A program made the position numbers and the translations under genes. Shown piece after piece: positions 6,972-39,727 of a stretch of 64,000 nt of DNA. The first letter of the stretch is position 1, and each line of letters begins with the position of its first letter. The stretch is taken from NCBI GenBank assembly GCA_964575845.1, contig CAZNSX010000004.1, positions 1-64,000 on the forward strand. The letters are read 5' to 3'. The notes under the pieces are model-generated. The model was not told the origin of the DNA. It made no database searches and was given only the letters and a program-made list of their open reading frames with translations. Source of the stretch: an uncultured bacterium (GTDB lineage Bacteria > UBA8248 > CAZNSX01).

Positions 6972-7213
6972 CTCTTTCCCCCCAAGGCCTTGAAATGAAC
7001 CATTTGTTGATGATATGGCCAGAAAGTCCCTTTGTAAAGGCTCAAGAGCCCAGATCCCCCAAGCCGCGCCCCCAGAATATATCTTCAGCACTGGTGGCGC
7101 TGGCAACCCCTTTTTCTTGCAATTTCACTGATATCTGCTAGATTAAGATGGCTTTGGGGAGGCTCTAAGAAGCTGGCCCGAGAGCTTATGCGAGCCTTAT
7201 CTCACAAGGAGAA

Positions 7214-9098: not shown

Positions 9099-9432
9099 GG
9101 TCGCCTTTATAGGAAGAAGGGACGCCGTCTTAGGATTTGCCCCTCTGGGCGTTGAAGTCTATATGGTCGAGGGGGTGGAAGAAGCCGGAGAGGCTCTTGA
9201 GCGAGCCATAAAAGCCGGGGCTTCCGCCATATTTCTCACTGAAGAGCTGGCCCCTGGCCTCAGCGAGAGGCTCGAAGCCCTGGGTCGTCTTCCCGTTCCA
9301 GCCCTCACGGTTCTGCCGGGACCTGGAGCGGTCGCGCGTTTGGGCAGAGAACGCCTGAGGCGCCATATGGAAAAGGCCCTCGGTACGGACGCCCTCTTCC
9401 AAGAGGGGATGGAAGGCGAGGCACAAGAGTGA
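9091..9432 (+). CDS. atpF: A/V-type ATP synthase subunit F
   Basis: ~110 aa protein ('KVAFIGRRDAVLGFAPLGVEVY...AIFLTEELA') matching V-ATPase F subunit size and motif. Translationally coupled to subunit C and directly upstream of subunit A. Confidence 0.75.
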   Translation: MSKVAFIGRRDAVLGFAPLGVEVYMVEGVEEAGEALERAIKAGASAIFLTEELAPGLSERLEALGRLPVPALTVLPGPGAVARLGRERLRRHMEKALGTDALFQEGMEGEAQE

Positions 9433-9496
9433 GGTGGCCCCTGAGGGGATTCATATCTGACGCATTCAGAAGGGACGTCCTTAGAGGAAGATTTCT

Positions 9497-11266
9497 ATGG
9501 AAGAAGGGGTGATCGTAAGGGTAACCGGTCCTGTGGTGATAGCCGAGGGCATGCCTGATGTCCGCATGTACGATGTTGTGCGCGTGGGCCGGGCGGGCCT
9601 GATAGGTGAGGTCATCGAGCTCCCCGGAGGGCGGGTGACAATTCAGGTCTATGAGGAAACAGGCGGCGTTGGCCCGGGAGAGCCTGTGGTGGGCACGGGC
9701 GCTCCTTTGAGCGTGGAGTTGGCCCCGGGTCTCGTCTCCTCCATCTATGACGGCATCCAGCGTCCCCTGGACATCATAAAGGATAAGGTCGGAGACTACA
9801 TCGTGAGGGGGGTGGAGGAGGACGGAATAAATAGGGACAAGAAGTGGGCCTTTGAGCCCAGAGCCAGAGAAGGAGATGAGGTCGAAGCGGGGGACATCCT
9901 CGGTGTGGTGCAGGAAACTCCCGTGGTGGAGCACCGGGTCCTCGTCCCGCCGGGCCTCAAGGGGAGGCTCACGGGGGTAAGCGCGGGTGAGTTTTCAGTT
10001 GAGGAAGTCATAGCTCGTCTAGAGGACTCTCAGGGGAAAGAGCACGAGCTCACCATGCTCCAGAGATGGCCCGTCAGGAGGGGAAGGCCCTTCTTGCGCA
10101 AGCTTCCCCTCAGGGAGCCCCTCTCCACCGGCCAGCGGGTCATCGATACCTTTTTCCCCATCGCCAAAGGGGGTGTGGCCTGCATTCCGGGCCCCTTCGG
10201 GAGTGGAAAGACGGTAGTGCAGCACCAGCTCTCAAAGTGGGCCGATGCGGAGATCATCGTTTTCATAGGCTGCGGGGAGCGGGGAAACGAGATGACCGAT
10301 GTGCTCATCGAATTCCCCCAGCTCACAGACCCTCGCACGGGAAAGCCCCTGATGCAGAGGACTGTCCTCATCGCCAACACCTCCAACATGCCCGTGGCCG
10401 CCCGGGAGGCCTCGGTATATACGGGGATAACCATCGCTGAGTACTTCAGGGATATGGGCTACAGTGTGGCCCTTATGGCTGACTCCACCTCCCGCTGGGC
10501 CGAAGCCATGCGGGAGATCTCAGGCCGCCTCGAGGAGATGCCGGGGGAGGAGGGCTACCCCGCCTATCTCGGAACCAGGATAGCCTCCTTTTATGAGCGC
10601 TCCGGCCGGGTCACCTGCCTGGGGAAGGAAGGCCGGGAGGGAAGCCTGAGCATAATAGGCGCGGTCTCACCGCCCGGGGGGGACCTCTCGGAGCCCGTGA
10701 CCCAGAATACCCTGCGCACGGTTCAGGTTTTCTGGGGCCTTGAGGATAGACTCGCCAATATGCGTCACTTCCCGGCAATAAACTGGCTTCTGAGCTACTC
10801 CCAGTATATTCCCCATATCACAGACTATCTCAGAGAGCGACTGGATGAGAATTTTCCCCTCTGGCGCACCCAGGCCATGGCGCTCCTCACCAAGGAGGCG
10901 GAGCTCGAGGAGATCGTCCGCCTTGTCGGCATAGATGCCCTCTCGCCCTCCGACCGTCTTGTGATGGAGACGGCCAAGTCTCTTCGCGAGGACTTCCTGC
11001 ACCAGAATGCCTTCCATGAGGAGGACACTTACACCTCCCTCCAGAAACAGGCCGGCATGCTCCAGCTCATCCTCAAGCTGCATGAGAGGGCGCAAGCCAT
11101 GCTGGACGAAGGGGCGTCCATAGATCAGGTGATTGACCTTCCCGTGAGAGCCCGAATCGCCCGAGCCAAGTATGTACCCGAGGAAGAGGCGGCCAAGGTC
11201 TTCACCGAGATAGCGCGGGAGATCGAGGAAGAGACGGTTCTTGCGGAGGTGAGAGAGGGCTCTTAG
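9497..11266 (+). CDS. atpA: A/V-type ATP synthase catalytic subunit A
   Basis: Walker A 'GPFGSGKTV', the '[11 protein letters not shown]' and '[18 protein letters not shown]' signatures, and the non-homologous insert region specific to A/V-type A subunits. Confidence 0.95.
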
Positions 11267-16250: not shown

Positions 16251-16343
16251 TGGCGGAGAGAGAGGGATTCGAACCCTCGAGGGCTGTCTCCAACCCCACA
16301 CGCTTAGCAGGCGTGCGCCTTAAGCCAGCTCGGCCATCTCTCC
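16251..16343 (-). tRNA. tRNA-Ser (anticodon GCU)
   Basis: Minus-strand 93-nt sequence GGAGAGATGGCCGAG...CGCCTGCTAAGCG...GGTTCGAATCCCTCTCTCTCCGCCA. It has a 7-bp acceptor stem, a long variable arm, a T-loop TTCGAAT and an encoded CCA; the anticodon loop CTGCTAA gives GCT. Confidence 0.85.
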
Positions 16344-16368
16344 GCCGGCTTCCGAAGAAATCTATCTC

Positions 16369-16454
16369 TGGCGGAGGGAGAGGGATTCGAACCCCCGGAA
16401 CTTTCGTTCAGCGGTTTTCAAGACCGCCGCCTTAAACCACTCGGCCATCCCTCC
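16369..16454 (-). tRNA. tRNA-Ser (anticodon UGA)
   Basis: Minus-strand GGAGGGATGGCCGAGTGG...GGTCTTGAAAACC...GGTTCGAATCCCTCTCCCTCCGCCA, with a long variable arm. The anticodon TGA reads UCA (Ser), so this is not tRNA-Sec. Confidence 0.85.
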
Positions 16455-25893: not shown

Positions 25894-26496
25894 CTAGCCC
25901 TGAGCAAAGAGCACGCGCACTACTTCAGGCTCAAGCTCCTCGCGAACCCTTCTTGCGAGGAGCTCAAGTGTGGCATTGACCTCATAGGCCTCCCCTTTGA
26001 GGATGCAGCCGCCCGCTATGGGACGTGGCTCGGGCGAGAGCGTCAGGGCCGCCCCCTTGCCCCTTCGCGCAAGCTCTCGATTTACCTCCTCAAGGAGGGA
26101 GCCGTCGATTCGGGAGAAGTCGTGCTCTGAGATGAAGACCACCTCATCGCCCGAGGCCACAGAGGCGAGCAACAACCCCTTGAAAAGCTCCCGGTAGCGC
26201 TCCAGGGGGAGCTCTGAGGCGGTCTTGAGGGCTCCTCTGAAGACAGCTTCCATGGCCTCCTGCTTCGCGGCCAGGAGTTTTTTCCTTTCCTCCAGACGTG
26301 CCCTTGTGACCACCTGTTCGCGCCGCACCCTGGCCTCGGCCTCGGCCTCCGCGCGGAGCTTAGCCGCCAGTCGCTCGGCCTCACTTTCGGCCGCCTCAAC
26401 TATGGCCCGCGCCTCCTCCTCTGCGCGCTTTTTCTTCTCTTCAGCCCTAGCCCCGGCGTCCGCGAGGATCTTATTCTTTATGTTGTCCAGCGACAT
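25894..26496 (-). CDS. atpE: A/V-type ATP synthase subunit E
   Basis: ~200 aa protein with an N-terminal Ala/Glu/Arg-rich coiled coil and a C-terminal globular domain. Immediately downstream of subunit K. Confidence 0.8.
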   Translation of the reverse strand: MSLDNIKNKILADAGARAEEKKKRAEEEARAIVEAAESEAERLAAKLRAEAEAEARVRREQVVTRARLEERKKLLAAKQEAMEAVFRGALKTASELPLERYRELFKGLLLASVASGDEVVFISEHDFSRIDGSLLEEVNRELARRGKGAALTLSPEPRPIAGGCILKGEAYEVNATLELLARRVREELEPEVVRVLFAQG

Positions 26497-26499
26497 GGT

Positions 26500-26976
26500 C
26501 TATCCCAGCTTGATTCCGTTGAGCATGAGCACGGTAGCAAGAAGGGCAAAGACGGCATAGGTTTCGACCATTGCGGGGAGCACTATGGCCTTTCCAGTTT
26601 CCTCAGGCCTGCGCGCGATGAGAAAGATCGAGCCCGCCGCCGCCTTCCCCTGCCCTATGGCCGAGAAGAACCCCACAATCCCCACGGGAATGCAGGCCCA
26701 GAAAATTTGAAGACCCTGAAGCTCCGTCACCTTGAGCGGAGCTCCTGCGAGGAACCCGATCTTTATCATAACAAGAAAGCCCACGAGTAGCCCATAAATG
26801 CCCTGGGTTCCGGGAAGGGCCTGAAAGAGGAGCACGAGGCCGAACTTGCCAGGGTCTTCCGTCATGATGCCGGCCCCAGCCGTACCCGCAGTCCCGAGCC
26901 CTATCCCCGAGCCCGAGCAAGAGGCGGCGATGGCTACGGCGGCTCCCAGAAGGGACCATGTAATCCCGTCGATCAT
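26500..26976 (-). CDS. atpK: A/V-type ATP synthase subunit K (proteolipid c-ring subunit, duplicated hairpin)
   Basis: Four TM helices made of two Gly/Ala-rich hairpins ('GLGTAGTAGAG', 'AIGQGKAAAGSI'), as in V-type c subunits. Confidence 0.85.
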   Translation of the reverse strand: MIDGITWSLLGAAVAIAASCSGSGIGLGTAGTAGAGIMTEDPGKFGLVLLFQALPGTQGIYGLLVGFLVMIKIGFLAGAPLKVTELQGLQIFWACIPVGIVGFFSAIGQGKAAAGSIFLIARRPEETGKAIVLPAMVETYAVFALLATVLMLNGIKLG

Positions 26977-27023
26977 AGCGTTTTATCTCCTCTCAAGAGC
27001 ATCGGGCCGGAAGTGCCCACCCC

Positions 27024-29021
27024 CTACTCCACAACCTCCACCCACTGGGTCTTCACCCTGAAGGGTGCGAAGGGAGAGCCGCCACCCACATAGAATTTCG
27101 TGAAAAACTCCACATACTGAAGGCGCGCTGAGTGGATGAAAGCACCCAGAGCGCCGATGAGCAGGTTAAACACATGACCGATCATAAAGATGGCAAAACC
27201 AAGGAGGACTCCTACGTAAGGGGTGCCGCCCACGAGCTGGACGAAGACATTGACGACAACCGCGATGACCCCCGTGGCCAGCCCCAAAGCAAAAAGCCGG
27301 GAGTATGAAAGAACATCCCCCAGGTAGCCCACGAGGCCATAGAGGCTCAAGAGGCCGCCTCCGACTTTCATGAAGGGGTTCCGGTAGTCCCGGCTCTTGG
27401 AGATTACGGTGAGGAGCGCCGAACCCCCCGCCAGATAAAGGGAGGCGGCACTCAGGCTTTCGGGCAGAACGCCGGTTTTCACCAGGAGGAGGAGCAGGAA
27501 AGATATGACCAAGAAGAGCTGAACCCCGGGGCCTAACAGAGCCTCAAGGCGCTCCCCATTCTTGTATAGAACCGCAAGCTTGAGCGCAAGGCCCAGAAGG
27601 AGCTGCACTACCCCCAGACCGAGAGCCAAGAGCAGAATCGGGACCGGATTCTCCACGGGATTCACGAGCAGCACGGAATCTTTAAGCGCCTTCAGGGGAC
27701 CGCCTCCCCAGGGTATGAGGTCCACGCCGTTTCCGAACCATGAGCCGAAAACAAGGCCGAAGCCCGCCGAAGATAGCCCCCCGAGAATGAGAAGCCTGAA
27801 AAACTGGCTGGCTCCCGGCCCAGGCCTCATGCGCCTCAGCATCCACAAACAAATAGCCGCCTGCGCCAGGCCGTAACCCACATCGCTCAGGCAGAACCCG
27901 AAGAAGAGGAAATAGAAGGGGGCGAGGAAAGGCGTGGGGTCGAGTTCCTCGGGACGGGGGAGCCCGTAGAGCTGAGTGATCGTGGCAAAGGGCCTGAGCT
28001 GGGGGGGGTTCACGATGGAGACCGGTACCTCCTCACCATCCACCGGCGTCTCCACGCACATCTCCAGTGTCTTGAACTTCCCGTTGAGGCGGCTCTCCAG
28101 ACGAGGCACATCCTGAGCCCTCATCCACCCTTCAAGGAGGAAGGCCTCGCGGCTCGCGGCCAGGTTCCTCCTGGCCTCCCGCCTCTCCCGCAAGATGTTG
28201 AGATAGTCGGAGGCCGCGGCCAGCTCTGCCTTTATTTCCTGAAAGGCCTTTGCCCTATCGAGCACACCCGTCCTTTCCTGCTCAAGCTCCTCCCGCCTCC
28301 TGGCTATAGCCTCGAGTGCCTGAGAGGGTGAAAGGGAGCCCCACTCAGGCCTCTCGGGAGGAGGCGGAAGAAGGTTCAGGCCCTTCACCTTAGCCAGCTC
28401 CTCTCTCAGGGCTTCTCCATCTTGATTGAGGAAGAGGAGAAGAGAGACCAGCTCGCCCCCCTCCTCGGAGGGGGAAAGCACCTCCAGGTGAAAGAGAAGC
28501 CCCCTTTCCTCCAGTGCCTGAGCCAGACTGGAGAAGGCCTCATCAACGCCCCGGCAAAGCTGTAACTCTATATATTTCAAAGACTTAAACTCATCCAACG
28601 AAGCGCTGAGCAGAGACCAGGGCTCAAGGCGCCCCATTGCTTCCCCGAGGCCTTCCTCTTCTTCGGTTATTCTCTGGAGCGCATCCGAGGTCTCCTTGAG
28701 TTCACTATAGATGGTATCGAGGGGGAGTTCTTCATAGGTCCTTTTGAGCTCCTCGCGCCTCAGCACTTTTTTCGGGTTAAGAAAGGCCGACAATCCCTTA
28801 TGCGCACGGTTCCCGTGGGATTCTATGAAATTAAGGCAGAAGCGAACCCGGGAGGCGTCTTCCTCGGCCCGCTCAAAGGAGGGCTCGTTTGAGCCCGGAG
28901 GGGCCGCCCCATCTGGCATGCGCTCCACCAAGCTGGCCATCTGCACCATGCCCGACCAATGGAGCTCCTCCAGGAGTTCCTCCTGGATGGAGCGGTGCCC
29001 CGCCAGAAGGAGCTTTTTCAT
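27024..29021 (-). CDS. atpI: A/V-type ATP synthase subunit I (a-subunit, 116 kDa family)
   Basis: N-terminal cytoplasmic coiled-coil domain (~330 aa) plus a C-terminal multi-TM domain with the conserved Arg-containing helix ('RLFALGLATGV'). Start placed at internal MKKLLLAG. Confidence 0.85.
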   Translation of the reverse strand: MKKLLLAGHRSIQEELLEELHWSGMVQMASLVERMPDGAAPPGSNEPSFERAEEDASRVRFCLNFIESHGNRAHKGLSAFLNPKKVLRREELKRTYEELPLDTIYSELKETSDALQRITEEEEGLGEAMGRLEPWSLLSASLDEFKSLKYIELQLCRGVDEAFSSLAQALEERGLLFHLEVLSPSEEGGELVSLLLFLNQDGEALREELAKVKGLNLLPPPPERPEWGSLSPSQALEAIARRREELEQERTGVLDRAKAFQEIKAELAAASDYLNILRERREARRNLAASREAFLLEGWMRAQDVPRLESRLNGKFKTLEMCVETPVDGEEVPVSIVNPPQLRPFATITQLYGLPRPEELDPTPFLAPFYFLFFGFCLSDVGYGLAQAAICLWMLRRMRPGPGASQFFRLLILGGLSSAGFGLVFGSWFGNGVDLIPWGGGPLKALKDSVLLVNPVENPVPILLLALGLGVVQLLLGLALKLAVLYKNGERLEALLGPGVQLFLVISFLLLLLVKTGVLPESLSAASLYLAGGSALLTVISKSRDYRNPFMKVGGGLLSLYGLVGYLGDVLSYSRLFALGLATGVIAVVVNVFVQLVGGTPYVGVLLGFAIFMIGHVFNLLIGALGAFIHSARLQYVEFFTKFYVGGGSPFAPFRVKTQWVEVVE

Positions 29022-29022
29022 C

Positions 29023-29349
29023 CTAGCTATCGCCACTGTAGCTCTCCATCCGCTCAAGCACCAGCCTGAGGGCGTTTTCCTTTCTCTCGGCCCAGCGCTC
29101 CTTTAGCCTCTCCCTCTCTTTTCTTCCCTCCTCCTCGATACCTCTTGCCTCAAGGTTCGCCTCTGCTTCCGCCTCCTCCAGAAGGCGCTCCCTCTGGGCT
29201 GAAGCTTCGGCTTTGACCTTCTGAAGGAGTTCTCTCGACCGAGCACGCGCGTCCCTGAGGGTCTGCTCAATTTCTTTTTGGGCTTCGGCCTCAAGGCCTT
29301 CTGCTTTGGTCTCCCAACCTTTGAGTTTTTTGAAAAGCTCTTCGGTCAT
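29023..29349 (-). CDS. A/V-type ATP synthase subunit G/H (peripheral stalk coiled-coil)
   Basis: 108 aa Glu/Ala/Arg-rich coiled-coil protein directly upstream of, and overlapping, subunit I, as in (G/H)-I-K-E operons. Confidence 0.6.
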   Translation of the reverse strand: MTEELFKKLKGWETKAEGLEAEAQKEIEQTLRDARARSRELLQKVKAEASAQRERLLEEAEAEANLEARGIEEEGRKERERLKERWAERKENALRLVLERMESYSGDS

Positions 29350-29501
29350 GGCGGTCTATAACCCTTTAGAAACAAAAGCATTATGTTAATAGGAAGCTTC
29401 CCCGCTTCCGAACCATCCCTGAACTATTGATGACCCCCCTCGAACCGGGTGTGATCACAAAGGCGTATCTACATATTTATCGTGTGAAAGAAGAAGAGAG
29501 T

Positions 29502-30416
29502 TTAGCCATAAGCCCCTCCCGGGTCTCCTTCGCTCGGGGAGACGGGCCTCTCGGAGAAGCCGCAGCCGAGAAGGGAAAGAACTCTTTCCAGCTCCTCGCG
29601 GGAATAATACTCGACCTCTATCTTCCCGCGGCTTTCCTTTCCCCTGATGCGCACCTTGGTCGCGAGGGCCTGCTTGAGCCTCTCCTCTATCTCGCTCAGA
29701 AAGGGATTCAGGCGACGAGCGCTCCCCCTCTTCGCCTCCCCCGCTTTCCCCGGCAGGGGCTCCCGCGCCAGGGCCTCGGTCTGCCTGACTGATAAACCCT
29801 TTTCTCTTATTGTTCGCCAGAGCGCGAGCTGCGCCGAAGCCGAAGGCAGGGATAGCAGCGCCCTGGCATGTCCCATGGTTATCTCCTCTTTCCGAATGCT
29901 CTCCTTTATGGCCTCCGGGAGTCTCAGGAGTCTCAGGACGTTGGCGACTGTGGAGCGGTCCTTCCCCACCCTCTCGCCCGCCTCCTCCTGCGTGAGGCCA
30001 AGTTCCTCCACCAGGTGGCGGAAGGCGGCAGCCTCCTCCATGGGGTTCAGGTCCGCGCGCTGGATGTTCTCCACGAGGGCAACCTCCACGAGCTCCCTCT
30101 CATCGGCTTCTATGATGAGCGCGGGCACTGTTTCGAGGCCTGCCTCTCGGGCGGCGCGCCAGCGTCGCTCTCCGGTGACGAGCCCATAACCCCCGGCAAC
30201 CTTCCTAACCACGATGGGCTGGAGAATGCCCTTCTCGCGGATGGACCGCGAGAGCTCCTCAAGCTTCTCCCGATTAAAGTCCTTCCTCGGTTGGTGGCTC
30301 CCCGGAGAAATCTCGCTGAGGGGAATTTCCCTCAGCCCGAGATCCTCCGGGACCCCGTGGGAAATCTCGGGAATAAGGGCATCCAGCCCCCGGCCCAGGA
30401 CTTTTCGCATCGCCAA
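29502..30416 (-). CDS. parB: Chromosome partitioning protein ParB (Spo0J)
   Basis: 'RKVLGRGLDALI' N-terminus, the ParB box 'GYGLVTGERRWRAAREAGLETVPALI', and an HTH 'LTQEEAGERVGKDRSTVANVLRLLRLP'. Confidence 0.9.
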   Translation of the reverse strand: MAMRKVLGRGLDALIPEISHGVPEDLGLREIPLSEISPGSHQPRKDFNREKLEELSRSIREKGILQPIVVRKVAGGYGLVTGERRWRAAREAGLETVPALIIEADERELVEVALVENIQRADLNPMEEAAAFRHLVEELGLTQEEAGERVGKDRSTVANVLRLLRLPEAIKESIRKEEITMGHARALLSLPSASAQLALWRTIREKGLSVRQTEALAREPLPGKAGEAKRGSARRLNPFLSEIEERLKQALATKVRIRGKESRGKIEVEYYSREELERVLSLLGCGFSERPVSPSEGDPGGAYG

Positions 30417-31185
30417 ACCCCTCTCTTTTACGTCTTCTTTCGATTAGTTCCCGCGCCAGAAGCAAGTAGGCTCTGGCTCCTGCGGAAGCTATATCGTAAA
30501 GGATTATGGGCTTTCCGTGACTCGGCGCTTCCGCCAGGCGAACATTTCGCGGGATAAACGTATTGAGAACCCCCTCGCCAAAGTGGCCCCGCACCTCTTC
30601 GGCCACCTGCTGGGAAAGGTTGGTCCTGCTGTCATACATCGTCAGAAGAATCCCCTCCAGCTCGAGCCCTGGATTATAAACTCTTCTCACGAGCTCGACC
30701 GTCCGCATCAGCTTTGAGAGCCCTTCCAGAGCATAGTACTCAGCTTGAAGGGGGATGAGGACGGCGTCGGCCGCCACCAGGACGTTGAGCGTGAGGAGTC
30801 CCAGCGAGGGAGGGCAATCGACTATTATGTAGTCATAGCCATCTTTTATCTTCAGAAGGAGGGGCCTCAGCCTCCCCTCCCTGTGGCGTGCCGACACAAG
30901 CTCAAGCTCCGCCCCGATTAGGTCTATATTGGAAGGAATGACGTCCAGGCGCTCGATGGAGGTCTTCCTCAGGGCCTCCTCAAGCCCCGCCTCACCCATG
31001 AGGGCTCTGTAGAGGGCATTCCCGGCTGAGTCAACCCCCGCTCCGCTTGCCGCATTGCCCTGAGGGTCCATATCCACAAGAAGCACTCTCTTCTCGGCGA
31101 CAGCCAGGGAAGCCGCGAGGTTAACCGCCGTTGTAGTCTTTCCCACCCCCCCTTTCTGGTTGGCTATGGCCAGAACCCTACACAT
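30274..31185 (-). CDS. parA: Chromosome partitioning ATPase ParA (Soj)
   Basis: Deviant Walker A 'IANQKGGVGKTTTAVNLA' and conserved 'DYIIVDCPPSLGLLTLNVLVAADAVLIPLQAEYYALEG'. The ORF carries a ~45-aa C-terminal tail overlapping the parB start. Confidence 0.9.
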   Translation of the reverse strand: MCRVLAIANQKGGVGKTTTAVNLAASLAVAEKRVLLVDMDPQGNAASGAGVDSAGNALYRALMGEAGLEEALRKTSIERLDVIPSNIDLIGAELELVSARHREGRLRPLLLKIKDGYDYIIVDCPPSLGLLTLNVLVAADAVLIPLQAEYYALEGLSKLMRTVELVRRVYNPGLELEGILLTMYDSRTNLSQQVAEEVRGHFGEGVLNTFIPRNVRLAEAPSHGKPIILYDIASAGARAYLLLARELIERRRKREGFGDAKSPGPGAGCPYSRDFPRGPGGSRAEGNSPQRDFSGEPPTEEGL

Positions 31186-31289
31186 TGACGCTTCATCAGG
31201 GCGGAGGACTATCTCTCCAGTCTAAGTCCCTCGAAAGACACTAAATTTTACCACGAAAAGGGAACGGGAAAAAGAGAATTCAAAAGTAA

Positions 31290-31305
31290 TGTTCCACGTG
31301 GAACA
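31290..31305. promoter_or_regulatory. parS centromere-like site
   Basis: Perfect palindrome TGTTCCACGTGGAACA matches 14/16 of the parS consensus TGTTNCACGTGAAACA. It lies in the AT-rich region just upstream of parA. Confidence 0.7.
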
Positions 31306-31604
31306 CATCGCTATAATTGATTGTTTTTAAATAAATACTTCATGCTTCCCAAGAGAATTCTCGAAGGAGCCCCCGGCTCCATCCCCTTTCTGTCTTCCCC
31401 GGTGCGTGGGATTTCGAAAAAAATTAATCGAGATTCAGGACATTATAGCAACTATTGCGGGAATAAGAGAAAAAAGGTTAAAGTTATAGGAAATACTTAA
31501 ACCCGCTGGTCTTTGCCTAAATGGGTTATATTATGCCCGCGCCGGCTCAGAGGGTTTCTGGGCGGGCTAACATAACGCCAGCAACCAAACTGAAGGAGGG
31601 AACC

Positions 31605-32072
31605 ATGAGAGAAACCATGCGCCTGAAGGTGGGGGACACCGCCCCCGACTTCACCCTCCCCGATACTGAGGGAAAGCCCGTCGGCCTCTCCCAGTTCAAG
31701 GGGAAGAACCTGGTCTTAGCTTTTGTGCCGGCGGCATTCACGCCCGTCTGAAGCGTCCAGCTGCCCGCGTACAACGCCGACCTAGAGAAGTTTGCGGGCT
31801 TCGACGCCACGGTCGTGGCCGTATCCACCGACAACACCCACAGCAACAAGGCATGGGTGGAGAGGATGCGGGGCTTGAACTACCCCGTGCTGAGCGATTT
31901 CTGGCCCCACGGAAATGTCGCCCTGAAGTATGGGGTGCTGAGGGAGGAAGGGATAACCGAAAGGGCCATCTTCCTCATCGATAAGGGGGGGAAGATCCGC
32001 TACATCGACATCCACCCCATAGGCGACCAGCCTGATAATGAGGAACTTTTCGAAGTACTGAGGAAGATGTGA
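31605..32072 (+). CDS. Peroxiredoxin (AhpC/TSA/Bcp-like) with in-frame UGA: predicted selenocysteine-containing peroxiredoxin
   Basis: ORFs 31521..31751 and 31815..32072 share a frame and are separated only by TGA at 31749-31751. Read through, it gives '[12 protein letters not shown]...[42 protein letters not shown]...'. The UGA sits exactly at the peroxidatic Cys of the FTPVC motif. RBS GAAGGAGGG precedes the ATG at 31605. A stem-loop (CGUC..GCCCGC..GCGGGC..GACG) starts ~4 nt after the UGA. Confidence 0.7.
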
Positions 32073-32136
32073 GAGGTTTGAAGTTTTGGGGGGGCGGCCT
32101 GAAAGGGCCGCCCCTTCCCTTAAGGGGGAAGAGATT

Positions 32137-32826
32137 ATGGTCAGCAAGATGAGCCGAAAGGCGGTGCCTTTCACCCCCTTTGAGAAGGAGCTGAAGGAGT
32201 GCTACCTGGGCCTTGTGACAAATGCCGGCGTTCACCTGAAGGACCAGGAGCCCTTCGACCCAGAGGGGGATGAGAGCCACCGCATAATCCCGGAGGACGC
32301 CCCATCAGACGCGCTCATGATAACCCACACCCATTATGACCATGCCGATGCAGATAGGGATATCAACTGCGTCTTCCCCATAGACAGGGTGAGGGAGCTC
32401 GCAGAGGAGGGCGTGATAAAGGGTCTGGGCAACCGCAATATCACGAAAGGGTTCAGTGAAAACCTGAAAGTCCTGTATGAGAAGAGCGCCCCCGAGGTGG
32501 CCGACCTCATCGAGAGGTCGAAGGCCGATATCGTCATACTCACGGGTGGCTGACCGCTCTGCCACCGCACGGTCGTTGCGACCCAGCGCGAGATAGAGAT
32601 GCGGGGTATCCCCACGGTTCTGATCACGGTCCTGCCCGATGACTCTAAGCCCATGCGGCCCCCGAGGGCCATTTACCCCAAGGGCTTCAAGCTCGGCCAC
32701 GGCCTGGGCGGCCCCGGCCAGAAGGAGCTCCAGAAGAAGGTGCTCCTCGCCGCCCTCTCGCAGTTCACCGAGCCTCCCGCGCCGGGGGAGATCAAGGAGA
32801 TGGAGTTTCCGGAGTACGGGGGGTGA
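32137..32826 (+). CDS. Glycine/betaine/sarcosine/D-proline reductase selenoprotein B (GrdB/PrdB) family protein with in-frame UGA (predicted Sec)
   Basis: ORFs 32086..32553 and 32599..32826 share a frame and are separated only by TGA at 32551-32553, with no other stop between. Read-through gives '...ADIVILTGG-U-PLCHRTVVATQREIEMRGIPTVLITV...'. The N-terminal region (VPFTPFEKELKECYLGLVTNAGVHL...ITHTHYDHADADRDIN) resembles the GrdB/PrdB family core. A hairpin (GGUCG UUG CGACC) follows the UGA. Confidence 0.6.
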
Positions 32827-32962: not shown

Positions 32963-33199
32963 GTGGAAATAAAGGAATACAACTTCACCGTTTTGTTTGA
33001 GCCAGCTGAGGAGGGAGGCTATGTCGTTACCTGCCCCGCTCTGCCGGGACTTGTCACCGAAGGAGACACCCTCGAAGAAGCCCGCGAGATGGCCAAAGAC
33101 GCCATCCGGGCCTACCTGGAGAGCCTGCGAAAAGACGGCCTGCCGATCCCTGCCGTCCCTTCCCTTTCATCGCAAAGATTTGAAGCGCAAAACCCTTGA
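32963..33199 (+). CDS. hicB: HicB-family antitoxin (UPF0150), orphan copy
   Basis: 'YNFTVLFEPAEEGGYVVTCPALPGLVTEGDTLEEAREMAKDAIRAYLE' is the HicB N-terminal RNase-H-like partial fold. No HicA partner adjacent on this strand. Confidence 0.7.
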   Translation: MEIKEYNFTVLFEPAEEGGYVVTCPALPGLVTEGDTLEEAREMAKDAIRAYLESLRKDGLPIPAVPSLSSQRFEAQNP

Positions 33200-33316
33200 A
33201 TCCGTCATCAAGCCGGGAGGAGGCGAGCTCCTCCCCTACACGGAAACCGGGCCCGTAGGGGCGGACCTCGCGTCCGCCCGCCGGTCAGGAGGAGGCCAGC
33301 GGGCGTGGGTGAAGCC

Positions 33317-33337
33317 GGGGTAGGTCACGGCTGCGCC
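33317..33337 (+). repeat. 21-bp repeat GGGGTAGGTCACGGCTGCGCC (left copy; inverted partner at 37820-37840)
   Basis: Exact 21-mer whose reverse complement occurs at 37820..37840; related copies at 63460..63527. Confidence 0.7.
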
Positions 33338-33436
33338 TTACCCAGTCCGGCTGAGCAGGGGGCGGGAATCCCCTTAATTTATTGATTTTATAGGGCTTCT
33401 GGCCTCGGCCCGGCTTTCTGGGTTCGCAATCCGTCC

Positions 33437-33676
33437 TTATCTGAGCAAACCGAGGTGGCGGAGGTCCTCTTCGCTCCAGCGGGTTGCAGCGAGGATTTGG
33501 CGGAGGGTGCCGACCGGCAGGGTGTCGCGGCTATGGTGGTAGTGGAGCACGGCGCGTCGTCCGTCCGGGTGGCGGTATACGCGGTGGCTTCCCTTGGAGC
33601 GCTGGTAGATGAAACCATCGCGCTCAAGCGCACGGATGAGCTTCCGGACCGGCAGGTTCCGGAGCTCTTCGGTCAC
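33437..33676 (-). CDS. hicA: HicA-family toxin (mRNA interferase, YcfA-like)
   Basis: 'LIRALERDGFIYQRSKGSHRVYRHPDGRRAVLHYHHSRDTLPVGTLRQIL' matches the HicA dsRBD-like fold with the catalytic His. Overlaps upstream hicB by 4 nt. Confidence 0.75.
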   Translation of the reverse strand: MTEELRNLPVRKLIRALERDGFIYQRSKGSHRVYRHPDGRRAVLHYHHSRDTLPVGTLRQILAATRWSEEDLRHLGLLR

Positions 33677-33912
33677 AGTGTAATGGCCACAGCCGGTTTC
33701 TCTTTCACCTCCACCTGACCGGCTTCCACGGGCACCGGTTCCCCCGCCTCAAGCATGTCCTCGACATACGCTTCGGCGGCATCTTGGATGTTGCGCAAGG
33801 CCTCCTCTCTGGTATGCCCCCAGCTTGTGAGGCCCGGCAGCGCGGGAACCCACACACTCCAGCGGCCATCATCCTCCTGCTGGAGCTCAACGCTCAAGAC
33901 GTAAGTCTTCAC
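33673..33912 (-). CDS. hicB: HicB-family antitoxin
   Basis: 'MKTYVLSVELQQEDDGRWSVWVPALPGLTSWGHTREEALRNIQDAAEAYVE' HicB fold, translationally coupled to hicA. Confidence 0.75.
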   Translation of the reverse strand: MKTYVLSVELQQEDDGRWSVWVPALPGLTSWGHTREEALRNIQDAAEAYVEDMLEAGEPVPVEAGQVEVKEKPAVAITL

Positions 33913-34120
33913 GGCAACGCCTCCTCAGGTCGTTTTTCTTTTCCATCCCTCAAGCTTAGAGGAGAATCTTTCGGAGGTCAAGAATCATGGGAGCGAGGGA
34001 GGCGGGTAGGTTAGAGCTGCGCCCGTGACCGACTATGGCGAATTAAGATGATGCGGAGCCTCAGCTTACCCGGCTCTTGAATTTCGCTTTGCGGCTATGG
34101 GAGGGGAGAAGTAGATACGC

Positions 34121-34732
34121 TCAGGTGAAATGATCCGGCCATTGCTTTCTTAAAAGCCCGACTATCTCCTCTGGTGTAAATACCCAGATTCCAAATCGAT
34201 TTACAAGCTTCTCCCTTCTGCCATCTCTTATAAAATCTCTTGTATTAATGGTTACGAAACAGTCACTCCCAGTTCTGACCACCTGCTTAAGATGTCGAAT
34301 GTCCGCTTTCTGCTTTTCATTAAGGGTCTTGGCCGACGGAAACAGAACATCTTTTAAGGCAGCATCAGGAATTTCAGGCCCCGCCAAAACATCACCTCCG
34401 TCTAAGCATGAAACATCCAAGGTGAATAGGCCCGGATGGGGGGGCATAACTCTTGCCTTTTCAATTCGCTGTTCTCCCTTCAACTCAGCCAGCATCGCGT
34501 CAGCCCGCTCAATTTTTATTAGTCCTTTCTCGGCCCACCTTTCTAGAGTATTTAGAGATGGGTCTTTCTGCTTTTCGTTTATACAAGAGCTATCAATCGT
34601 TATACGATGAATACGACCCCTCCATTTAGCCCATCCGGTTTCCCGAAAGGGCCATGTACATTCATGGCAATTTTCTATTTCCATTGGGACTAGTTTTTCG
34701 CCGCACCTCGGACACTCAATCTTCATGCTCAT
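34121..34732 (-). CDS. Zinc-ribbon + PIN-like domain protein
   Basis: N-terminal CPRC...CHEC zinc ribbon. C-terminal 'DCFVTINTRDFIR' resembles the PIN-domain C-terminal motif (xxVTxNxxDFxR), with a PIN-like first strand 'IHRITIDSSCINE'. Low-GC gene; start at internal MSMKIE with a GGAG RBS. Confidence 0.45.
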   Translation of the reverse strand: MSMKIECPRCGEKLVPMEIENCHECTWPFRETGWAKWRGRIHRITIDSSCINEKQKDPSLNTLERWAEKGLIKIERADAMLAELKGEQRIEKARVMPPHPGLFTLDVSCLDGGDVLAGPEIPDAALKDVLFPSAKTLNEKQKADIRHLKQVVRTGSDCFVTINTRDFIRDGRREKLVNRFGIWVFTPEEIVGLLRKQWPDHFT

Positions 34733-34794
34733 ACGCTCCGAATATAAGCGAAGGGGAGATCTCAGCACGGACATGACCGGCACGGCCTATTTTC

Positions 34795-37746
34795 CTAAGC
34801 CGCCCTCAGAAGCTCTTCAACCAAACCGTCAATTTCTTGCGCGATTCCTTCTTCCCGTAGTGCATCGCGGATGAGGCGGCGGGCGCGGACGAAGTGCAAT
34901 CCTTCCCGAAGCTCGACGGCGGCCGCGAGCTTTTCGGCCTCTCGGGCTTTTTTTACTAATTCTTTGTGTAGAGGTTGTCTTTCGTCAAACCGAGGGATGG
35001 GCAGCTCGAACATAACCTTGTGGAAATCGCGCGCGCCCCACTGACCACGGCTTTGCAAATGCGCCACTTTCTTACGAGCGGTTTCGCTATTAAGAATCGC
35101 GATTAGATAACAAGCCTCATCTAATCGGCCTAATGCCGCCCAATACGATTTGGACTCTACAACTGCCGTTTCGTCTGTCAAGACTGCCGCCGCTGGAAAG
35201 GTTCCTGAGGTTGCATATAGAACACGAAAAGGAGCCTGTGGGAATTGACTTGTAAGTTCTTTGTGATAATCCCATCGCTCGATAAGCGTTATGTTGCTCC
35301 TTTTGTACTCATCCCACATCCGTTCTCCGTCACTCATCCAGCGCGCCAGGTGGGGATATCCTTCAGCCTGAGCCGCACGCGCATCGAGCAGCCGTCCTGA
35401 AGCCGTGTTCCAGGGGATTACAGATAGGGCGGGTTCCAGGAGGCGATATGGGGCAATTGATTCACCCAGATATAACGGGCGGAGGAACCGCTTCTCAATA
35501 GGGCCACGCAGTGGAGGTAAATCCTTCCAGGGAGGCTTGTCCAGATTGCTTATACGGCTTTGGACTAGAGGCGTCGCGGGGCTCGCTCCCAGACGGCCAG
35601 ATTCCGCCCGTTCTACGCGGCAGAAACGACGGGGCACCATCGTTGCACCCTGCCGAAACGCCTTCCTATAAGGGGACCCACCTACGAGCGCGGCTTCCGC
35701 CGGCCAGGGTTCCTTGCGCCATGAGAGAGCTTTGTCTGCTTCACCCAGAGTTGCATTGCGGCGCGGGAGCTGGCCTGTGCAGGCGTCAATGCGGCTCGGC
35801 AATGCTCCGGCTGTGACGCGCCGGGCAAAAAAGACAGAGGACGGCACCTCAAAAAGTGGCTGCACATCTTCGCCGAAGGCCCACGCGCCGGTGAACCGGA
35901 CCCGGACGAGGGCAAAATCGCCCTTACGGAAGCCCTTAAACTGCGCACGCGTCATCGCCGCATAAGGCATTACAAAAGCAATGACACCCTTATCCTTGAG
36001 GTAAAGCTCGGCCGCGCGGGCAAAGAAATACCCGGATAGGTCCTGATGTGTCGCCACCTTGCCTCCGGCCCATAGAAAACGATCCTGGCACTCCGCCCGG
36101 AACCGCTTCTGCATTTCATCCGACATATACCGGTAGGAGAGCCACGGCGGGTTCCCGACGACTACATCTGCCTGCTGCTCACGGGAAGAGAGCCAGAGGG
36201 GCCGAACAAGGTTGCGGGCGACATACCCCCAGATGTGGTTCTTTCCCTGCTTTCGAAGGTCGCGAATATGGCGATAGGTGTCTTTCAGGACCTCGGCGTC
36301 CGGCCCGGAAGCTATGCTCTGGCGGGAAAGCCAAGCAGCGAAGTCGGAGGCTTTCGCCTTTTGCTCGCTGAGGCTGAGCATCATCCCGATAACGGCATCA
36401 AGAGAAGACGGCTCTCGCGTAACCGCCGGGGGGAAGTGCAATATCGGCCCATCGGGAACATCGATGAGCACCTCTTTATCCGCCAAGAATTGGCGTGTGT
36501 TCCACTGGAGAGAATCGCCCAGATAGACAGGTATGCTTAAGCCCTCTGGCCGGGCCTTTAGCCTCTCCTCTCCCAGGGCAAGCAGATATGTCACCCGCGC
36601 GAAAAGCACCGCGATCGGGTGCAAGTCCACCCCGAGAACGCGTCTTGTGCATTCAGCCAGAGCATCGCGATTAGCCATGCCGGCGGCATCGGCGGCATTC
36701 AGAAAAAGCCGCACAGCATGAAAGAGAAACGTCCCCGAGCCGCAGGCCGGGTCGAGCACCCGCTCTTCGAGGGGGTTACGTATAGCATGTTCACAAATGC
36801 GCGCGGCAAGCCAGTCGGGCGTGTAGTATTCCCCGAGGTCGTGGCGCTGCTCCGGGTCGATGAGCGATTCGTAAAGGCTCTTTAGAACGTCCTGCTGGAT
36901 GTCCCTCAGGCGGAAGCGGGCGACCTGTCGTGCTATGCGGATAATCAGCTCTTCGCCGTCGGTCGCGCTCAGCACCCAATCGAAGAAATCAGACTCAATG
37001 GCACCGGATATCCCGGCCTCGTGAAAGGGGCGCCCCGACAAAAGGGCCCTTGGGTCGTCCGTGGCGATGTCCAGGACCCGCGCGGCCATTGTCTTCGCGA
37101 CGATGGTGAGATAAGTGTGCTGGATGAAGAGCCCCTCGGCCCCGATGCGTGTGCCGTAAACTTTCTGAATAAGGTCTTCCCAGAGCTGCCTCTTGACCCG
37201 AACTTCGGGGTTATCTTTAACCTCATCCCAGAGGGTCTCAAGACGCGCCCTTGCCCTTTGATATGCCAGGCTCTCCCGACCCAATTGCTTTTCGACCGTG
37301 AATGCGTCCGGTAGGAGGTCCTGTCTCGTGGAAGTCGCCGTATCCAGCCATACAATAAGTAAATGGGGATCATCTCTGGAGGGTTGAAAGGGCTTTAGCG
37401 GAGCGAGCCGTCCGGCCTGAAGCTCATAGGCAAGGAATGTCGCACCGTCTGTCGCAATACCGAGGAAGCGCTCGCCGGTCTCCCTTTCACGCTCTCCCAT
37501 GTAACGGGAAAGCTTTTGTTCGGCATCGCGCCTCTCCGCCCGAAGGTCCCGCTTGAACTCGAAAACCGTGCAGCCGAGAAGAGCGTCCAGGCGGCCACGC
37601 ACCTCAGGCAGCGCGCGCTCGAATTCAATCTCGGAACTCTGCACGCCGACTTCGGAAACGAGCAGCTCATGCACGAGCGTCCTGACCTTTTCGTGCCCCG
37701 GACGGGTGAGGAGCTCGCTAACGATTTCCTTCAGTCGGTCTGGCAT
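34795..37746 (-). CDS. MmeI-like Type IIG/IIL restriction-modification enzyme (fused PD-(D/E)xK nuclease, N6-adenine methyltransferase and TRD)
   Basis: 983-aa single polypeptide. N-terminal 'GRLDALLGCTVFEFKRD' D-X8-E-X-K nuclease motif, positioned as in MmeI. Helical linker; MTase motif I 'VLDPACGSGTFL' and motif IV 'VVGNPPW' (gamma-class N6-adenine MTase); ~350-aa C-terminal target-recognition region. Confidence 0.75.
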   Translation of the reverse strand: MPDRLKEIVSELLTRPGHEKVRTLVHELLVSEVGVQSSEIEFERALPEVRGRLDALLGCTVFEFKRDLRAERRDAEQKLSRYMGERERETGERFLGIATDGATFLAYELQAGRLAPLKPFQPSRDDPHLLIVWLDTATSTRQDLLPDAFTVEKQLGRESLAYQRARARLETLWDEVKDNPEVRVKRQLWEDLIQKVYGTRIGAEGLFIQHTYLTIVAKTMAARVLDIATDDPRALLSGRPFHEAGISGAIESDFFDWVLSATDGEELIIRIARQVARFRLRDIQQDVLKSLYESLIDPEQRHDLGEYYTPDWLAARICEHAIRNPLEERVLDPACGSGTFLFHAVRLFLNAADAAGMANRDALAECTRRVLGVDLHPIAVLFARVTYLLALGEERLKARPEGLSIPVYLGDSLQWNTRQFLADKEVLIDVPDGPILHFPPAVTREPSSLDAVIGMMLSLSEQKAKASDFAAWLSRQSIASGPDAEVLKDTYRHIRDLRKQGKNHIWGYVARNLVRPLWLSSREQQADVVVGNPPWLSYRYMSDEMQKRFRAECQDRFLWAGGKVATHQDLSGYFFARAAELYLKDKGVIAFVMPYAAMTRAQFKGFRKGDFALVRVRFTGAWAFGEDVQPLFEVPSSVFFARRVTAGALPSRIDACTGQLPRRNATLGEADKALSWRKEPWPAEAALVGGSPYRKAFRQGATMVPRRFCRVERAESGRLGASPATPLVQSRISNLDKPPWKDLPPLRGPIEKRFLRPLYLGESIAPYRLLEPALSVIPWNTASGRLLDARAAQAEGYPHLARWMSDGERMWDEYKRSNITLIERWDYHKELTSQFPQAPFRVLYATSGTFPAAAVLTDETAVVESKSYWAALGRLDEACYLIAILNSETARKKVAHLQSRGQWGARDFHKVMFELPIPRFDERQPLHKELVKKAREAEKLAAAVELREGLHFVRARRLIRDALREEGIAQEIDGLVEELLRAA

Positions 37747-37819
37747 GGGAGGTCTTTCGTCCAGGAGTTATCGTGGATTTTCTTCTTTCCCATACCTTTC
37801 TAACGGCCTAATAGGTCAC

Positions 37820-37840
37820 GGCGCAGCCGTGACCTACCCC
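37820..37840 (-). repeat. 21-bp repeat, inverted copy, embedded in the palindrome TAGGTCACGGC-GCA-GCCGTGACCTA
   Basis: GGCGCAGCCGTGACCTACCCC is the exact reverse complement of 33317..33337. The site is itself an 11-bp-arm palindrome between the RM gene start and the upstream membrane-protein gene. Confidence 0.7.
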
Positions 37841-37847
37841 GTGCACC

Positions 37848-38651
37848 TTACCAATCAGTCCCTTTGGCTTTCCATCTTACGACTATAATCTGAAGTGGCA
37901 ACAAAGTAGCCGCTAGCTGATAAGTTCCTTCGGAAAGTTTTATTAATTTTTCTGAATGTTCCCGATGACCGAAACTAGGTTCAACGTCAAGGTTCTCGCT
38001 TGGCTTCACTTTCACCGTCGGGTTGACGGTTGCATATAGCAAGTAAAGGAAATCTTCCCCTCTACTTGCTCTTATTGTTTGAGTTTTGAACCAAATTCGT
38101 AATTCCCCGCCTCTGGGAAGATTTACATCTCTCTCGAAACTTCTTTGTTCCAAATTTATTTGCCTTACTTCATTCTCATCGTCCACCTTATATCCGACCT
38201 CGAGTATTGGTCTTTCTAAAATTTCATCGCCTATACTCGCGCCAATTTTAATGCGTATTTTTTCCGCCTTTCTCCCTATGTTTCTTAAGCATCTATTGCC
38301 TTCCAGAGTGATGAGAATTTTTCCATCATTTCTCTCCGCAAATTCATAATCGAAGGTTGATGAAGTCGCCAAAATTTTTTGACCATATACCCATTCGAGT
38401 TCTGGTTTTAGCTCATCCGGAAGGAGGTAACCAATAGAAGCCCTAAATGCATCTTCAGCAAGTCTTTGGTTAAACGCCCATCCAATTAGCCCACTCGTTA
38501 CAACGGAGGCAATCAGCGCTGATCCAAAACCATATTGGAGTCCGTTTGGTAACCAATCAAAGGGATCCCATAGCACAAGTATTCCCAAAACGGACACCAC
38601 CGCACAAAGAAGCAACAAAAAAGCATTCTGCCAAAACCAACTGTCGCGCAT
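37848..38651 (-). CDS. Hypothetical membrane protein (2 N-terminal TM helices + ~200-aa soluble domain), low GC
   Basis: TM helices 'AFLLLLCAVVSVLGILVLW' and 'FGSALIASVVTSGLIGWAF'. No recognisable family. Same strand as, and immediately upstream of, the RM enzyme. Confidence 0.5.
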   Translation of the reverse strand: MRDSWFWQNAFLLLLCAVVSVLGILVLWDPFDWLPNGLQYGFGSALIASVVTSGLIGWAFNQRLAEDAFRASIGYLLPDELKPELEWVYGQKILATSSTFDYEFAERNDGKILITLEGNRCLRNIGRKAEKIRIKIGASIGDEILERPILEVGYKVDDENEVRQINLEQRSFERDVNLPRGGELRIWFKTQTIRASRGEDFLYLLYATVNPTVKVKPSENLDVEPSFGHREHSEKLIKLSEGTYQLAATLLPLQIIVVRWKAKGTDW

Positions 38652-38977
38652 AGCGTTGTTATATTCGGTTTAGCTGTCCAGTTAGACTTTTTCCCTCACG
38701 CCTTGACATGCTGCTCGACGGCTTGTGCTATAACTTCGTCCCGGAAGTAGCGGCTCAATTCCGCCGGGGTGCGCATATCCACCTTCCTGCCAATAAGTTC
38801 GGAAAGTTCCCGCTCAATCCCGGCGAAGAGGAATAAAACCCTGAGCGAAATAATACCGAAAGTGGGCTGTCAGGGCAAGGGCTTTCGCTAGTACCCCCCT
38901 TTATTATCGAACCCTTTGAAATAACAGGAATTAGCAAAAATATTGCTGGAAGTGTATATCCGCGGTTCTTTTACCCT

Positions 38978-39727
38978 TCATGGCTCGCTCTTCGCTACAA
39001 CCAGAAACCCCCCTGACGGAGGCGGGAGGGGTTTTAGGTCGGTGAGGGTGAGGCCTTCCTCTGAGAGGATGTCTTCCGCCCTTTCAATCTCATCCCTTGA
39101 GCGCCTTCCCTTGCGAAGGATGAGGTAGCCTGAAGGTTTGAGGAAGGGGCGGGAGAGGGAGGCCGCACGGGGGAGGGGGCCGAGGGCCCTTGCCGTGACG
39201 ATGGAGAAGGTTTCCCTGAGCTCTTCTTCTCCTGCGAGCTCCTCAGCCTTCCCGTGGAGGACCTCCGCTCCCTCTTTGAAAAGGAGCCTTGATATATGCC
39301 TTAGAAAATTTGCCTTCTTCTGGCTAGCCTCCAGGAAGAAAAGCTCTAGCTCGGGCCTCAATACTTTTATGAGGACGCCGGGGACGCCCGCGCCCGAGCC
39401 GAGGTCAAGAACCCGGAGCCCCCGGGCCTCTTCCCCGCTCTTGAGGCCCCAGGGAAGTCCCTCCAGCTCCGGCTCAAGAAAGGGAAGGGAGCCGAGGAGA
39501 AGCTCCCTCACCATGGCATCCCGTGTCTTGAAGCCCGTCAGGTTTATTGCCCGCCGCCACCGGGTGAGCTCCCTGAGGTAGAGGGAGAAGGCTTCTCGCT
39601 CAAGGCGGGAGAGCCTGAGGCCCTCCTGCGTGAAGGCCTCTTCCAGGAGCCGCTCCCCCGAATCTTTGCCGGAAGGCTCAGGGGCTTCTCGCCCTCTCAC
39701 GCCTCCTCCTCTCCAGATAAACTTCAA
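38978..39727 (-). CDS. rsmG: 16S rRNA (guanine527-N7)-methyltransferase RsmG (GidB)
   Basis: '[21 protein letters not shown]', SAM motif '[17 protein letters not shown]' and '[12 protein letters not shown]' are typical of RsmG. Start uncertain (possible GTG near 39700). Confidence 0.8.

Follow-up and report, generated by a model that had tools for sequence, protein, structure and literature searches.

A probable UGA-encoded selenocysteine at the peroxidatic site of a cysteine-free peroxiredoxin, encoded beside a PrdB-like selenoprotein

In the 64,000-nucleotide stretch of an uncultured bacterium analysed here (GenBank assembly GCA_964575845.1, contig CAZNSX010000004.1, positions 1 to 64,000; hereafter the window), a peroxiredoxin gene carries a single in-frame TGA at the codon of its peroxidatic residue. 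Taking all the evidence together, we consider it very probable that this UGA encodes a peroxidatic selenocysteine (Sec) in a peroxiredoxin that is otherwise free of cysteine, that a hairpin in the mRNA brings about the recoding, and that the enzyme depends on an external reductant, for which the product of the PrdB-like selenoprotein gene next to it is the most likely candidate. The features of the peroxiredoxin gene, including a candidate Sec insertion sequence (SECIS), are as follows.

31593–31599, forward strand: Shine–Dalgarno-like AAGGAGG, read from the sequence, 5 nt 5' of the peroxiredoxin ATG
31605–32072, forward strand: AhpE-like peroxiredoxin gene of 155 codons, Cys-free, with predicted Sec as codon 49 (translation, Pfam, PDB matches, dN/dS)
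31749–31751, forward strand: in-frame TGA, the predicted Sec codon and peroxidatic residue of PAAFTPV-U (translation, AhpE alignment, DNA of homologues)
31753–31807, forward strand: SECIS-type hairpin (fold, family covariation, contrast of Sec and Cys forms)
31753–31757 with 31803–31807, forward strand: outer stem of the hairpin in the minimum-energy fold, beginning 2 nt after the UGA
31763–31769 with 31793–31799, forward strand: family-conserved 7-bp G+C lower stem, GCCCGCG/UGCGGGC, beginning 12 nt after the UGA
31770–31792, forward strand: poorly paired apical region of the hairpin (fold)

Translation of 31605–32074 showed that the frame from the ATG at 31605 to the stop ending at 32072 contains one internal stop, the TGA at 31749–31751. 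The first-pass annotation of this DNA had started from two open reading frame (ORF) entries, 31521..31751 and 31815..32072 on the forward strand, lying in one frame with a TGA between them, and the ORF list and our translation agree on this. The 63 nt that separate the two entries are open, and the second entry begins at the first GTG. The gene likely starts at the ATG at 31605 rather than at 31521, because AAGGAGG precedes this ATG and because the gene of a relative, on contig L001, was called from the equivalent ATG. The start of the L001 gene is preceded by AAAGGAGG, the counterpart of the AAGGAGG of the window.

When a Cys is placed at the stop, the product matches the Pfam AhpC-TSA profile (PF00578) over positions 1–124 of 124, spanning the UGA (E 1.4e-37; 128.8 bits against a cut-off of 26), and it also matches the Redoxin profile. 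The active-site motif PxxxTxxC(U) is present as P42-A-A-F-T46-P-V-U49, and its Pro and Thr, the peroxidatic position and the Arg of 'TERA' align with active-site residues of AhpE of Mycobacterium tuberculosis (MtAhpE). The full-profile match and the MtAhpE alignment bear out the earlier proposal that reading through yields an AhpC/TSA peroxiredoxin with the UGA at its peroxidatic Cys, and both reveal conservation on the two sides of the UGA. Cys stands at the UGA position in 113 of the 120 best protein homologues.

The best relatives in the PDB are MtAhpE (E 1.1e-27, 100.4 bits) and 2ywn, an archaeal peroxiredoxin from Sulfolobus tokodaii (E 2.1e-27, 99.5 bits). Because the score of 2ywn is nearly equal, the AhpE-like assignment leans on a motif as well as on the score: LSDFWPHG is common to the window protein and AhpE only. 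No NCBIfam equivalog cut-off was reached by the peroxiredoxin. The 155-residue product is encoded without any Cys codon and hence has no resolving cysteine; by sequence, it is a Cys-free 1-Sec peroxiredoxin that is probably AhpE-like. AhpE of M. tuberculosis (Rv2238c; PDB 1xvw, 1xxu, 4x1u) resembles it in length, in being of the 1-Cys type and in lacking a resolving residue, but has Cys at the peroxidatic site where the window protein would have Sec. The reductant of AhpE is the mycoredoxin-1/mycothiol system. On the other hand, the protein is not of the type of PrxU of Eubacterium acidaminophilum (NF040737), which the first-pass annotation named as a known Sec-peroxiredoxin. PrxU is likewise a bacterial peroxiredoxin with Sec as the peroxidatic residue, but it belongs to another subfamily: the window protein, with 155 residues and zero cysteine, scores 68.6 bits against the equivalog cut-off of 270 and covers only positions 32–173 of the 233-position model.

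The TGA is conserved well beyond the window. Among database proteins, the closest (P0001) comprises only a C-terminal fragment of 105 residues, and on the two contigs that encode it, L001 and L002, the gene is broken at the same TGA and is likewise found among genes for ParB, ParA and a PrdB-like protein. The window and L001 genes are 83% identical in nucleotides and 91% in amino acids, with a synonymous divergence (dS) of ~1.15. The ratio of nonsynonymous to synonymous divergence (dN/dS) is 0.041 overall, 0.071 on the 5' side of the TGA and 0.029 on its 3' side. Five further loci (L003–L007) also have the TGA codon. Furthermore, we scanned one genome per species with a TGA-specific pattern, ACNNNNRTNTGA followed by 144 free bases and GAYTTYTGGCCNCAYGG, which returned at least 120 loci. 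At least 120 species-level genomes thus carry TGA at the same codon, and all matches listed read through as peroxiredoxin. Anaerolineae make up most of the matches listed, and the remainder belong to Sulfobacillus, Tumebacillus, Clostridium punense, Acidobacteriota, Eremiobacterota, Actinomycetota, Myxococcales, Syntrophales, Methylomirabilota and Zixibacteria; the matches listed do not include the species of the window itself.

Could the RNA just 3' of this codon serve as a recoding signal? We aligned the 66 nt from the TGA of 127 distinct Sec-form genes without gaps. A hairpin centred on column 33 was 73.6% paired in this alignment compared with 65.0 ± 0.5% after shuffling, a level that none of 500 shuffles reached, and pairing fell to 28–44% when the 3' partner was slid. 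Doubly changed cells numbered 181 against 79.5 expected, and the covariation score was 0.270 compared with 0.153 in shuffled alignments. The window's own register, which is free of bulges, was also supported by pair counting on the same alignment. Furthermore, the 48 nt 3' of the codon had a mean minimum free energy of −18.0 kcal/mol (z = −2.97) in 154 Sec forms, whereas it was −10.2 kcal/mol (z = −0.41) in 20 Cys-form homologues (Mann–Whitney p = 4.5e-11), at a G+C of 0.54 and 0.52, respectively. Since many of the Cys forms encode nearly the same peptide, this contrast indicates that the hairpin goes with the UGA rather than with the encoded peptide. These results establish a SECIS at the level of the family. 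The window copy is a probable SECIS, with the lower stem intact and in the family register and, when the outer stem is included, a typical energy of −20.8 (family median −19.6). The hairpin that the first-pass annotation had placed near the UGA is therefore present, but the stem conserved in the family starts 12 nt 3' of the UGA instead of about 4 nt, and in the window the apical part is weak.

Several results weigh against this reading of the gene. Taken by itself, the window hairpin is no better than shuffled sequences (z = −0.43), which is why we relied on comparative evidence. Its core, at −13.5, falls within the weakest 10% of Sec forms, and only 2 of the 4 upper-stem pairs of the family can form in the window and fewer in L001. 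RNAalifold found no consensus structure in all 127 Sec-form sequences, an outcome we attribute to a lower stem whose register differs between subgroups; both registers were tested by explicit pair counting, and an initial column-pair screen of the alignment gave uninformative noise. As for the machinery, selA, selB and selD are absent from the ORFs inspected in the window, and a search of the window with Rfam and ARAGORN returned two tRNA-Ser only, with no tRNA-Sec and no other Rfam family. No tRNA-Sec was found in any of 215 fetched loci. The fact that two selenoprotein genes adjoin in the window supports, indirectly, the ability of the organism to decode Sec.

The weak apical region would also be compatible with a UGA that mainly terminates translation, giving a 48-residue peptide, perhaps together with a separate C-terminal product from the GTG at 31815, and the full-length protein as a minor read-through product; it is established that Sec insertion and termination compete and that insertion depends on the supply of selenium. 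We nevertheless regard this as improbable. A peroxiredoxin fold cut at its active site would be unable to function as separate parts, both halves show strong purifying selection in a single frame, the lower SECIS stem has been kept in the family register, and no ribosome-binding site is evident 5' of GTG 31815.

Still less credible is a dead gene, or a sequencing or assembly error, in which a Cys codon has been mutated to or misread as TGA. TGA is only one base away from TGC and TGT, and most full-length database homologues do have Cys here (113 of the best 120, as given above). However, independently assembled sequences from the same organism and from the 91%-identical relative (L129, L001, L002) show the same TGA, which recurs in the 120 or more other genomes, and a hairpin specific to Sec forms comes after the codon. 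Moreover, dN/dS 3' of the stop is 0.029 with synonymous change saturated. Strong purifying selection thus acts in frame on the part of the gene 3' of the TGA, and a pseudogene is excluded.

The least probable alternative, to which we give practically no weight, is that UGA is a sense codon for Trp or Gly (genetic code 4 or 25), as some annotation pipelines took it and as the W deposited at this site in 6 of the 120 best homologues might suggest, but TGA ends mnmG, rsmG, serS and the V-type ATPase subunit F gene in the window, MnmG aligns with its homologues along its entire length (100%) as far as its TGA stop, the only two in-frame TGAs in 64 kb with coding-like sequence on both sides lie at redox-active Cys positions, the G+C content of the window is 59%, and replacing the peroxidatic residue with Trp or Gly would, by established peroxiredoxin chemistry, abolish catalysis. 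TGA is therefore a normal stop in the window, and an alternative code is excluded. At the DNA level, all four of the W entries looked up (five loci) read TGA; those W entries are mistranslations under code 4. Among public entries, we noted six such selenoproteins stored with Trp at the Sec position, and two more besides, and still others are kept as two fragments; both kinds amount to systematic mis-annotation. The best named relative of MnmG, at 90% identity, is labelled 'Nitrospinota bacterium', and the next, at 62–65%, come from Tectimicrobiota and Nitrospinae.

The proposal that Sec replaces the peroxidatic Cys is thus upheld by a UGA kept in relatives, by purifying selection 3' of the UGA and by a hairpin with covariation that is specific to the UGA form. 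Recoding would follow the standard bacterial mechanism, to which the conserved, Sec-specific hairpin points: SelB with Sec-tRNA(Sec) would be recruited by the mRNA hairpin just 3' of the UGA (stem 31763–31769/31793–31799), and Sec would be inserted at 31749–31751 in place of termination. In the enzyme, a selenolate in the PxxxTxxU…R site would be expected to attack a hydroperoxide and become a selenenic acid, the peroxidase chemistry of its family transferred to selenium. Because the peroxiredoxin has no resolving cysteine, an external reductant would have to recycle the oxidised form.

Where might this reductant come from? The gene that begins 62 nt after the peroxiredoxin gene encodes a second predicted selenoprotein, and the relevant features are as follows.

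32090–32115, forward strand: perfect 11-bp G+C hairpin in the spacer that separates the selenoprotein genes (−31.6 kcal/mol, z = −2.57)
32137–32826, forward strand: PrdB-like selenoprotein gene of 229 codons, GRDB family, with a GG-U-PLC-HR motif (translation, Pfam GRDB, NCBIfam)
32551–32553, forward strand: in-frame TGA, the predicted Sec codon of the PrdB-like UxxC motif (translation; known Sec position of the family)
32571–32583, forward strand: candidate apical hairpin of a PrdB-like SECIS, GGUCG-UUG-CGACC (fold)

The sequence around this TGA reads ...VILTGG-U-PLCHRT..., and the TGA is also found in L001 and L002. Among distinct homologous sequences, the site is TGA in 50 and TGC or TGT in 35. 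The Cys-form homologues (LTGG-C-PLC) are 55–61% identical over the full length, and the LTGG-U/C-PLC-HR block is invariant among 25 aligned homologues. The folding energies of the PrdB-like SECIS region showed no significant contrast between Sec and Cys forms (−14.5 versus −14.2 kcal/mol, p = 0.26).

The two genes are associated in many genomes. Of 116 complete Sec-form peroxiredoxin genes that we fetched, 75 carry a fused glutaredoxin domain at the C-terminus and 41 stand alone. A PrdB-like gene lies directly 3' in 14 of the 41 stand-alone loci, as it does in the window, and always has TGA at its UxxC; these 14 loci come from Methylomirabilota, Bacilli, Myxococcales and other deltaproteobacteria, Acidobacteriota and Chloroflexota. 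All three of the Cys-type PrdB-like homologues that were looked up have an AhpC/TSA gene directly 5'. Furthermore, a metagenome scan with the PrdB-like alignment gave 80 loci, in 57 of which such a peroxiredoxin is adjacent. In 38 loci it lies directly 5' on the same strand (28 of them with TGA at the peroxidatic position), and in 19 a Cys-type peroxiredoxin lies convergently just 3', with a gap of 49–150 nt in 13 of the 19. No peroxiredoxin was seen in the other 23, although in 13 of these the sequence upstream is shorter than 900 nt. The association of the peroxiredoxin with the PrdB-like protein is thus strong, holding in two gene orders and for Sec and Cys forms alike.

Two side observations concern these pairs. 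Mixed pairs occur, in which a Sec-peroxiredoxin stands with a Cys-type PrdB-like protein or the reverse (ENA ERZ25039485 contig_409 and eight further loci, L139–L145 and L195), and the switch between Sec and Cys in one gene is therefore not strictly tied to that in the other. Nor is the DFWPHG motif universal.

Gene neighbourhood points to the PrdB-like product (32137–32826) as the most likely reductant of the peroxiredoxin. Its U-x-x-C site would form a Se–Se (or Se–S) link with the oxidised peroxiredoxin, which its own Cys would then resolve, and a thioredoxin-type system would in turn reduce the PrdB-like protein. In Anaerolineae, the fusion to glutaredoxin may represent a parallel solution to the same problem of recycling. 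As in the peroxiredoxin–glutaredoxin hybrids (e.g., Haemophilus PGdx), the reductant is tethered to the peroxidase in these Sec-form fusions; the peroxiredoxin of the window carries no such fusion. PGdx itself has Cys and is a member of a different peroxiredoxin subfamily. The Anaerolineae are the main holders of the fusion of Sec-peroxiredoxin with glutaredoxin (CPxC), with nine loci (L005–L013) and ~70 others, e.g., in Leptolinea sp. HRD-7 and Ornatilinea apprima.

Three observations count against a partnership of the two proteins. First, a nearby PrdB-like gene is missing from 27 of the 41 loci with a stand-alone Sec-peroxiredoxin; the downstream genes in 20 of these 27 are heterogeneous and suggest no alternative partner. 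Second, in an AlphaFold model of a Cys-form PrdB-like homologue (pLDDT 93.7), the CxxC lies between a strand and the N-terminus of a helix, and the fold is generic and Rossmann-like rather than a thioredoxin fold; the model has no close solved relative. Third, the strong hairpin at 32090–32115 separates the two genes. This hairpin is kept in L001 and L002 with another loop and is followed there by UUCUUUU; the terminator scan did not call the window copy, in which no T-run follows the hairpin. It could act as a partial terminator or stabilise the mRNA, and co-transcription of the pair may be partial. A second small hairpin follows at 32116–32129.

It is also possible, though in our view unlikely, that the neighbour is a true D-proline reductase subunit, unrelated to the peroxiredoxin and adjacent to it by chance. 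Its best NCBIfam match is indeed TIGR04483 (PrdB), aligned over nearly the whole length with E 1e-52, its homologues are labelled 'D-proline reductase PrdB' in the sources, and it shares with the clostridial subunit (TIGR04483; GRDB, PF07355) both its length and the placement of Sec at the same U-x-x-C site. However, the score of 178.9 bits lies below the equivalog cut-off of 300, and PrdA, PrdC or Grd was found in none of the ten neighbouring ORFs scanned (27024–31185 and 32963–39727). Those ORFs encode V-type ATPase subunit I, ParB, ParA, two HicB-like proteins, an Eco57I-type methylase, RsmG and three proteins without a Pfam match. Elsewhere in the window, none of the large unassigned ORFs resembles PrdA, although no whole-window scan with a PrdA model was made. 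Where PrdB would be accompanied by PrdA, the PrdB-like genes instead have a peroxiredoxin as their consistent neighbour, in the 57 of 80 unrelated metagenome loci described above, in two gene orders and in several phyla.

How does the Sec-peroxiredoxin relate to selenoproteins already known? 'Peroxiredoxin (Prx), PF00578, TxxU' is listed as an established prokaryotic selenoprotein family, with PrxU of E. acidaminophilum cited there (PMC13188914). Surveys described 12 members of the Sec-peroxiredoxin family with five independent Cys-to-Sec events (PMC1794560), 43 genes in the Sargasso Sea (PMC1088965) and 253 in the Global Ocean Sampling (GOS) data (PMC2398784). These numbers, together with the 120 or more genomes found with our TGA pattern, contradict the statement of the first-pass annotation that Sec-peroxiredoxins are rare. 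The TxxU family of Zhang and Gladyshev consists, like the window gene, of AhpC/TSA proteins with Sec at the peroxidatic site, a SECIS directly 3' and many Cys homologues; nothing essential differs, and the surveys set apart no AhpE-like subgroup. Consequently, the Sec-peroxiredoxin is a further member of an established and abundant family, in a subfamily other than that of PrxU. We found no paper naming a Sec-containing AhpE-type enzyme in a search that was thin on subscription journals. The same surveys counted peroxiredoxin and PrdB as separate families, at 43 and 42 genes in the Sargasso Sea (PMC1088965) and 253 and 235 in GOS (PMC2398784), and reported other adjacent selenoprotein pairs but not this one (PMC1088965, PMC2398784). 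No paper linking PrdB homologues with peroxiredoxins was found either, in a search from which subscription journals were mostly absent and which is no proof of novelty.

The surroundings of the selenoprotein pair were also surveyed. Upstream lie parA and parB and genes of the V-type ATPase, and downstream two HicB-like genes, the Eco57I-type methylase gene, rsmG and mnmG. Between parA and the gene for the peroxiredoxin, an A+T-rich spacer of 420 nt contains a palindrome, TGTTCCACGTGGAACA, at 31289–31306, whose counterpart in L001 is nearly identical (TGTTTCACGTGGAACA); it could be the operator of a redox regulator or part of an origin region by parAB. The HicB-like antitoxin genes occupy 32963–33199 and 33673–33912, and the Eco57I/MmeI-type N6-methylase gene, of 983 codons, lies within 34121–38651 on the reverse strand. 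Two ORFs without a Pfam match flank the methylase and have a third-position G+C of 0.44 and 0.37, compared with ~0.7 elsewhere. Together, the methylase gene, these two ORFs and the HicB-like genes look like an acquired defence/toxin–antitoxin islet between the selenoprotein pair and rsmG–mnmG. The V-type ATPase genes are arranged in two clusters ~15 kb apart (8043–11266 and 25894–29349), one with subunits C/d, F and A and the other with I, K and E-like. A seryl-tRNA synthetase gene is present at 5664–7106 on the reverse strand, and the two tRNA-Ser genes (GCT and TGA anticodons) lie within 16251–16454, also on the reverse strand.

Taken alone, the Sec-peroxiredoxin is of modest interest, mainly for annotation. 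Gene callers break it into two pieces (48 plus 105 or 85 residues) or render its UGA as Trp, so that a common antioxidant selenoprotein is systematically overlooked or mislabelled, here in a little-studied lineage near Nitrospinota/Tectimicrobiota. The lead to follow is the conserved module of peroxiredoxin and PrdB-like protein. We tentatively propose, with the doubt that such a generalisation deserves, that 'PrdB' selenoproteins outside the amino-acid-fermenting clostridia might be dedicated recyclers of AhpE-like 1-Cys/1-Sec peroxiredoxins and not subunits of proline reductase. In such a two-gene module, in many cases made up of two selenoproteins, the U/CxxC motif of the PrdB-like protein would resolve the selenenic or sulfenic acid of the peroxiredoxin, a task that falls to the fused glutaredoxin in Anaerolineae. 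If true, this would explain the near-equal counts of peroxiredoxin and PrdB genes in aerobic ocean metagenomes, and it would identify the reductant of this 1-Cys subfamily, the AhpE-type peroxiredoxins, in organisms that are free of mycothiol. A large and abundant 'proline reductase' selenoprotein family would then move to peroxide defence.

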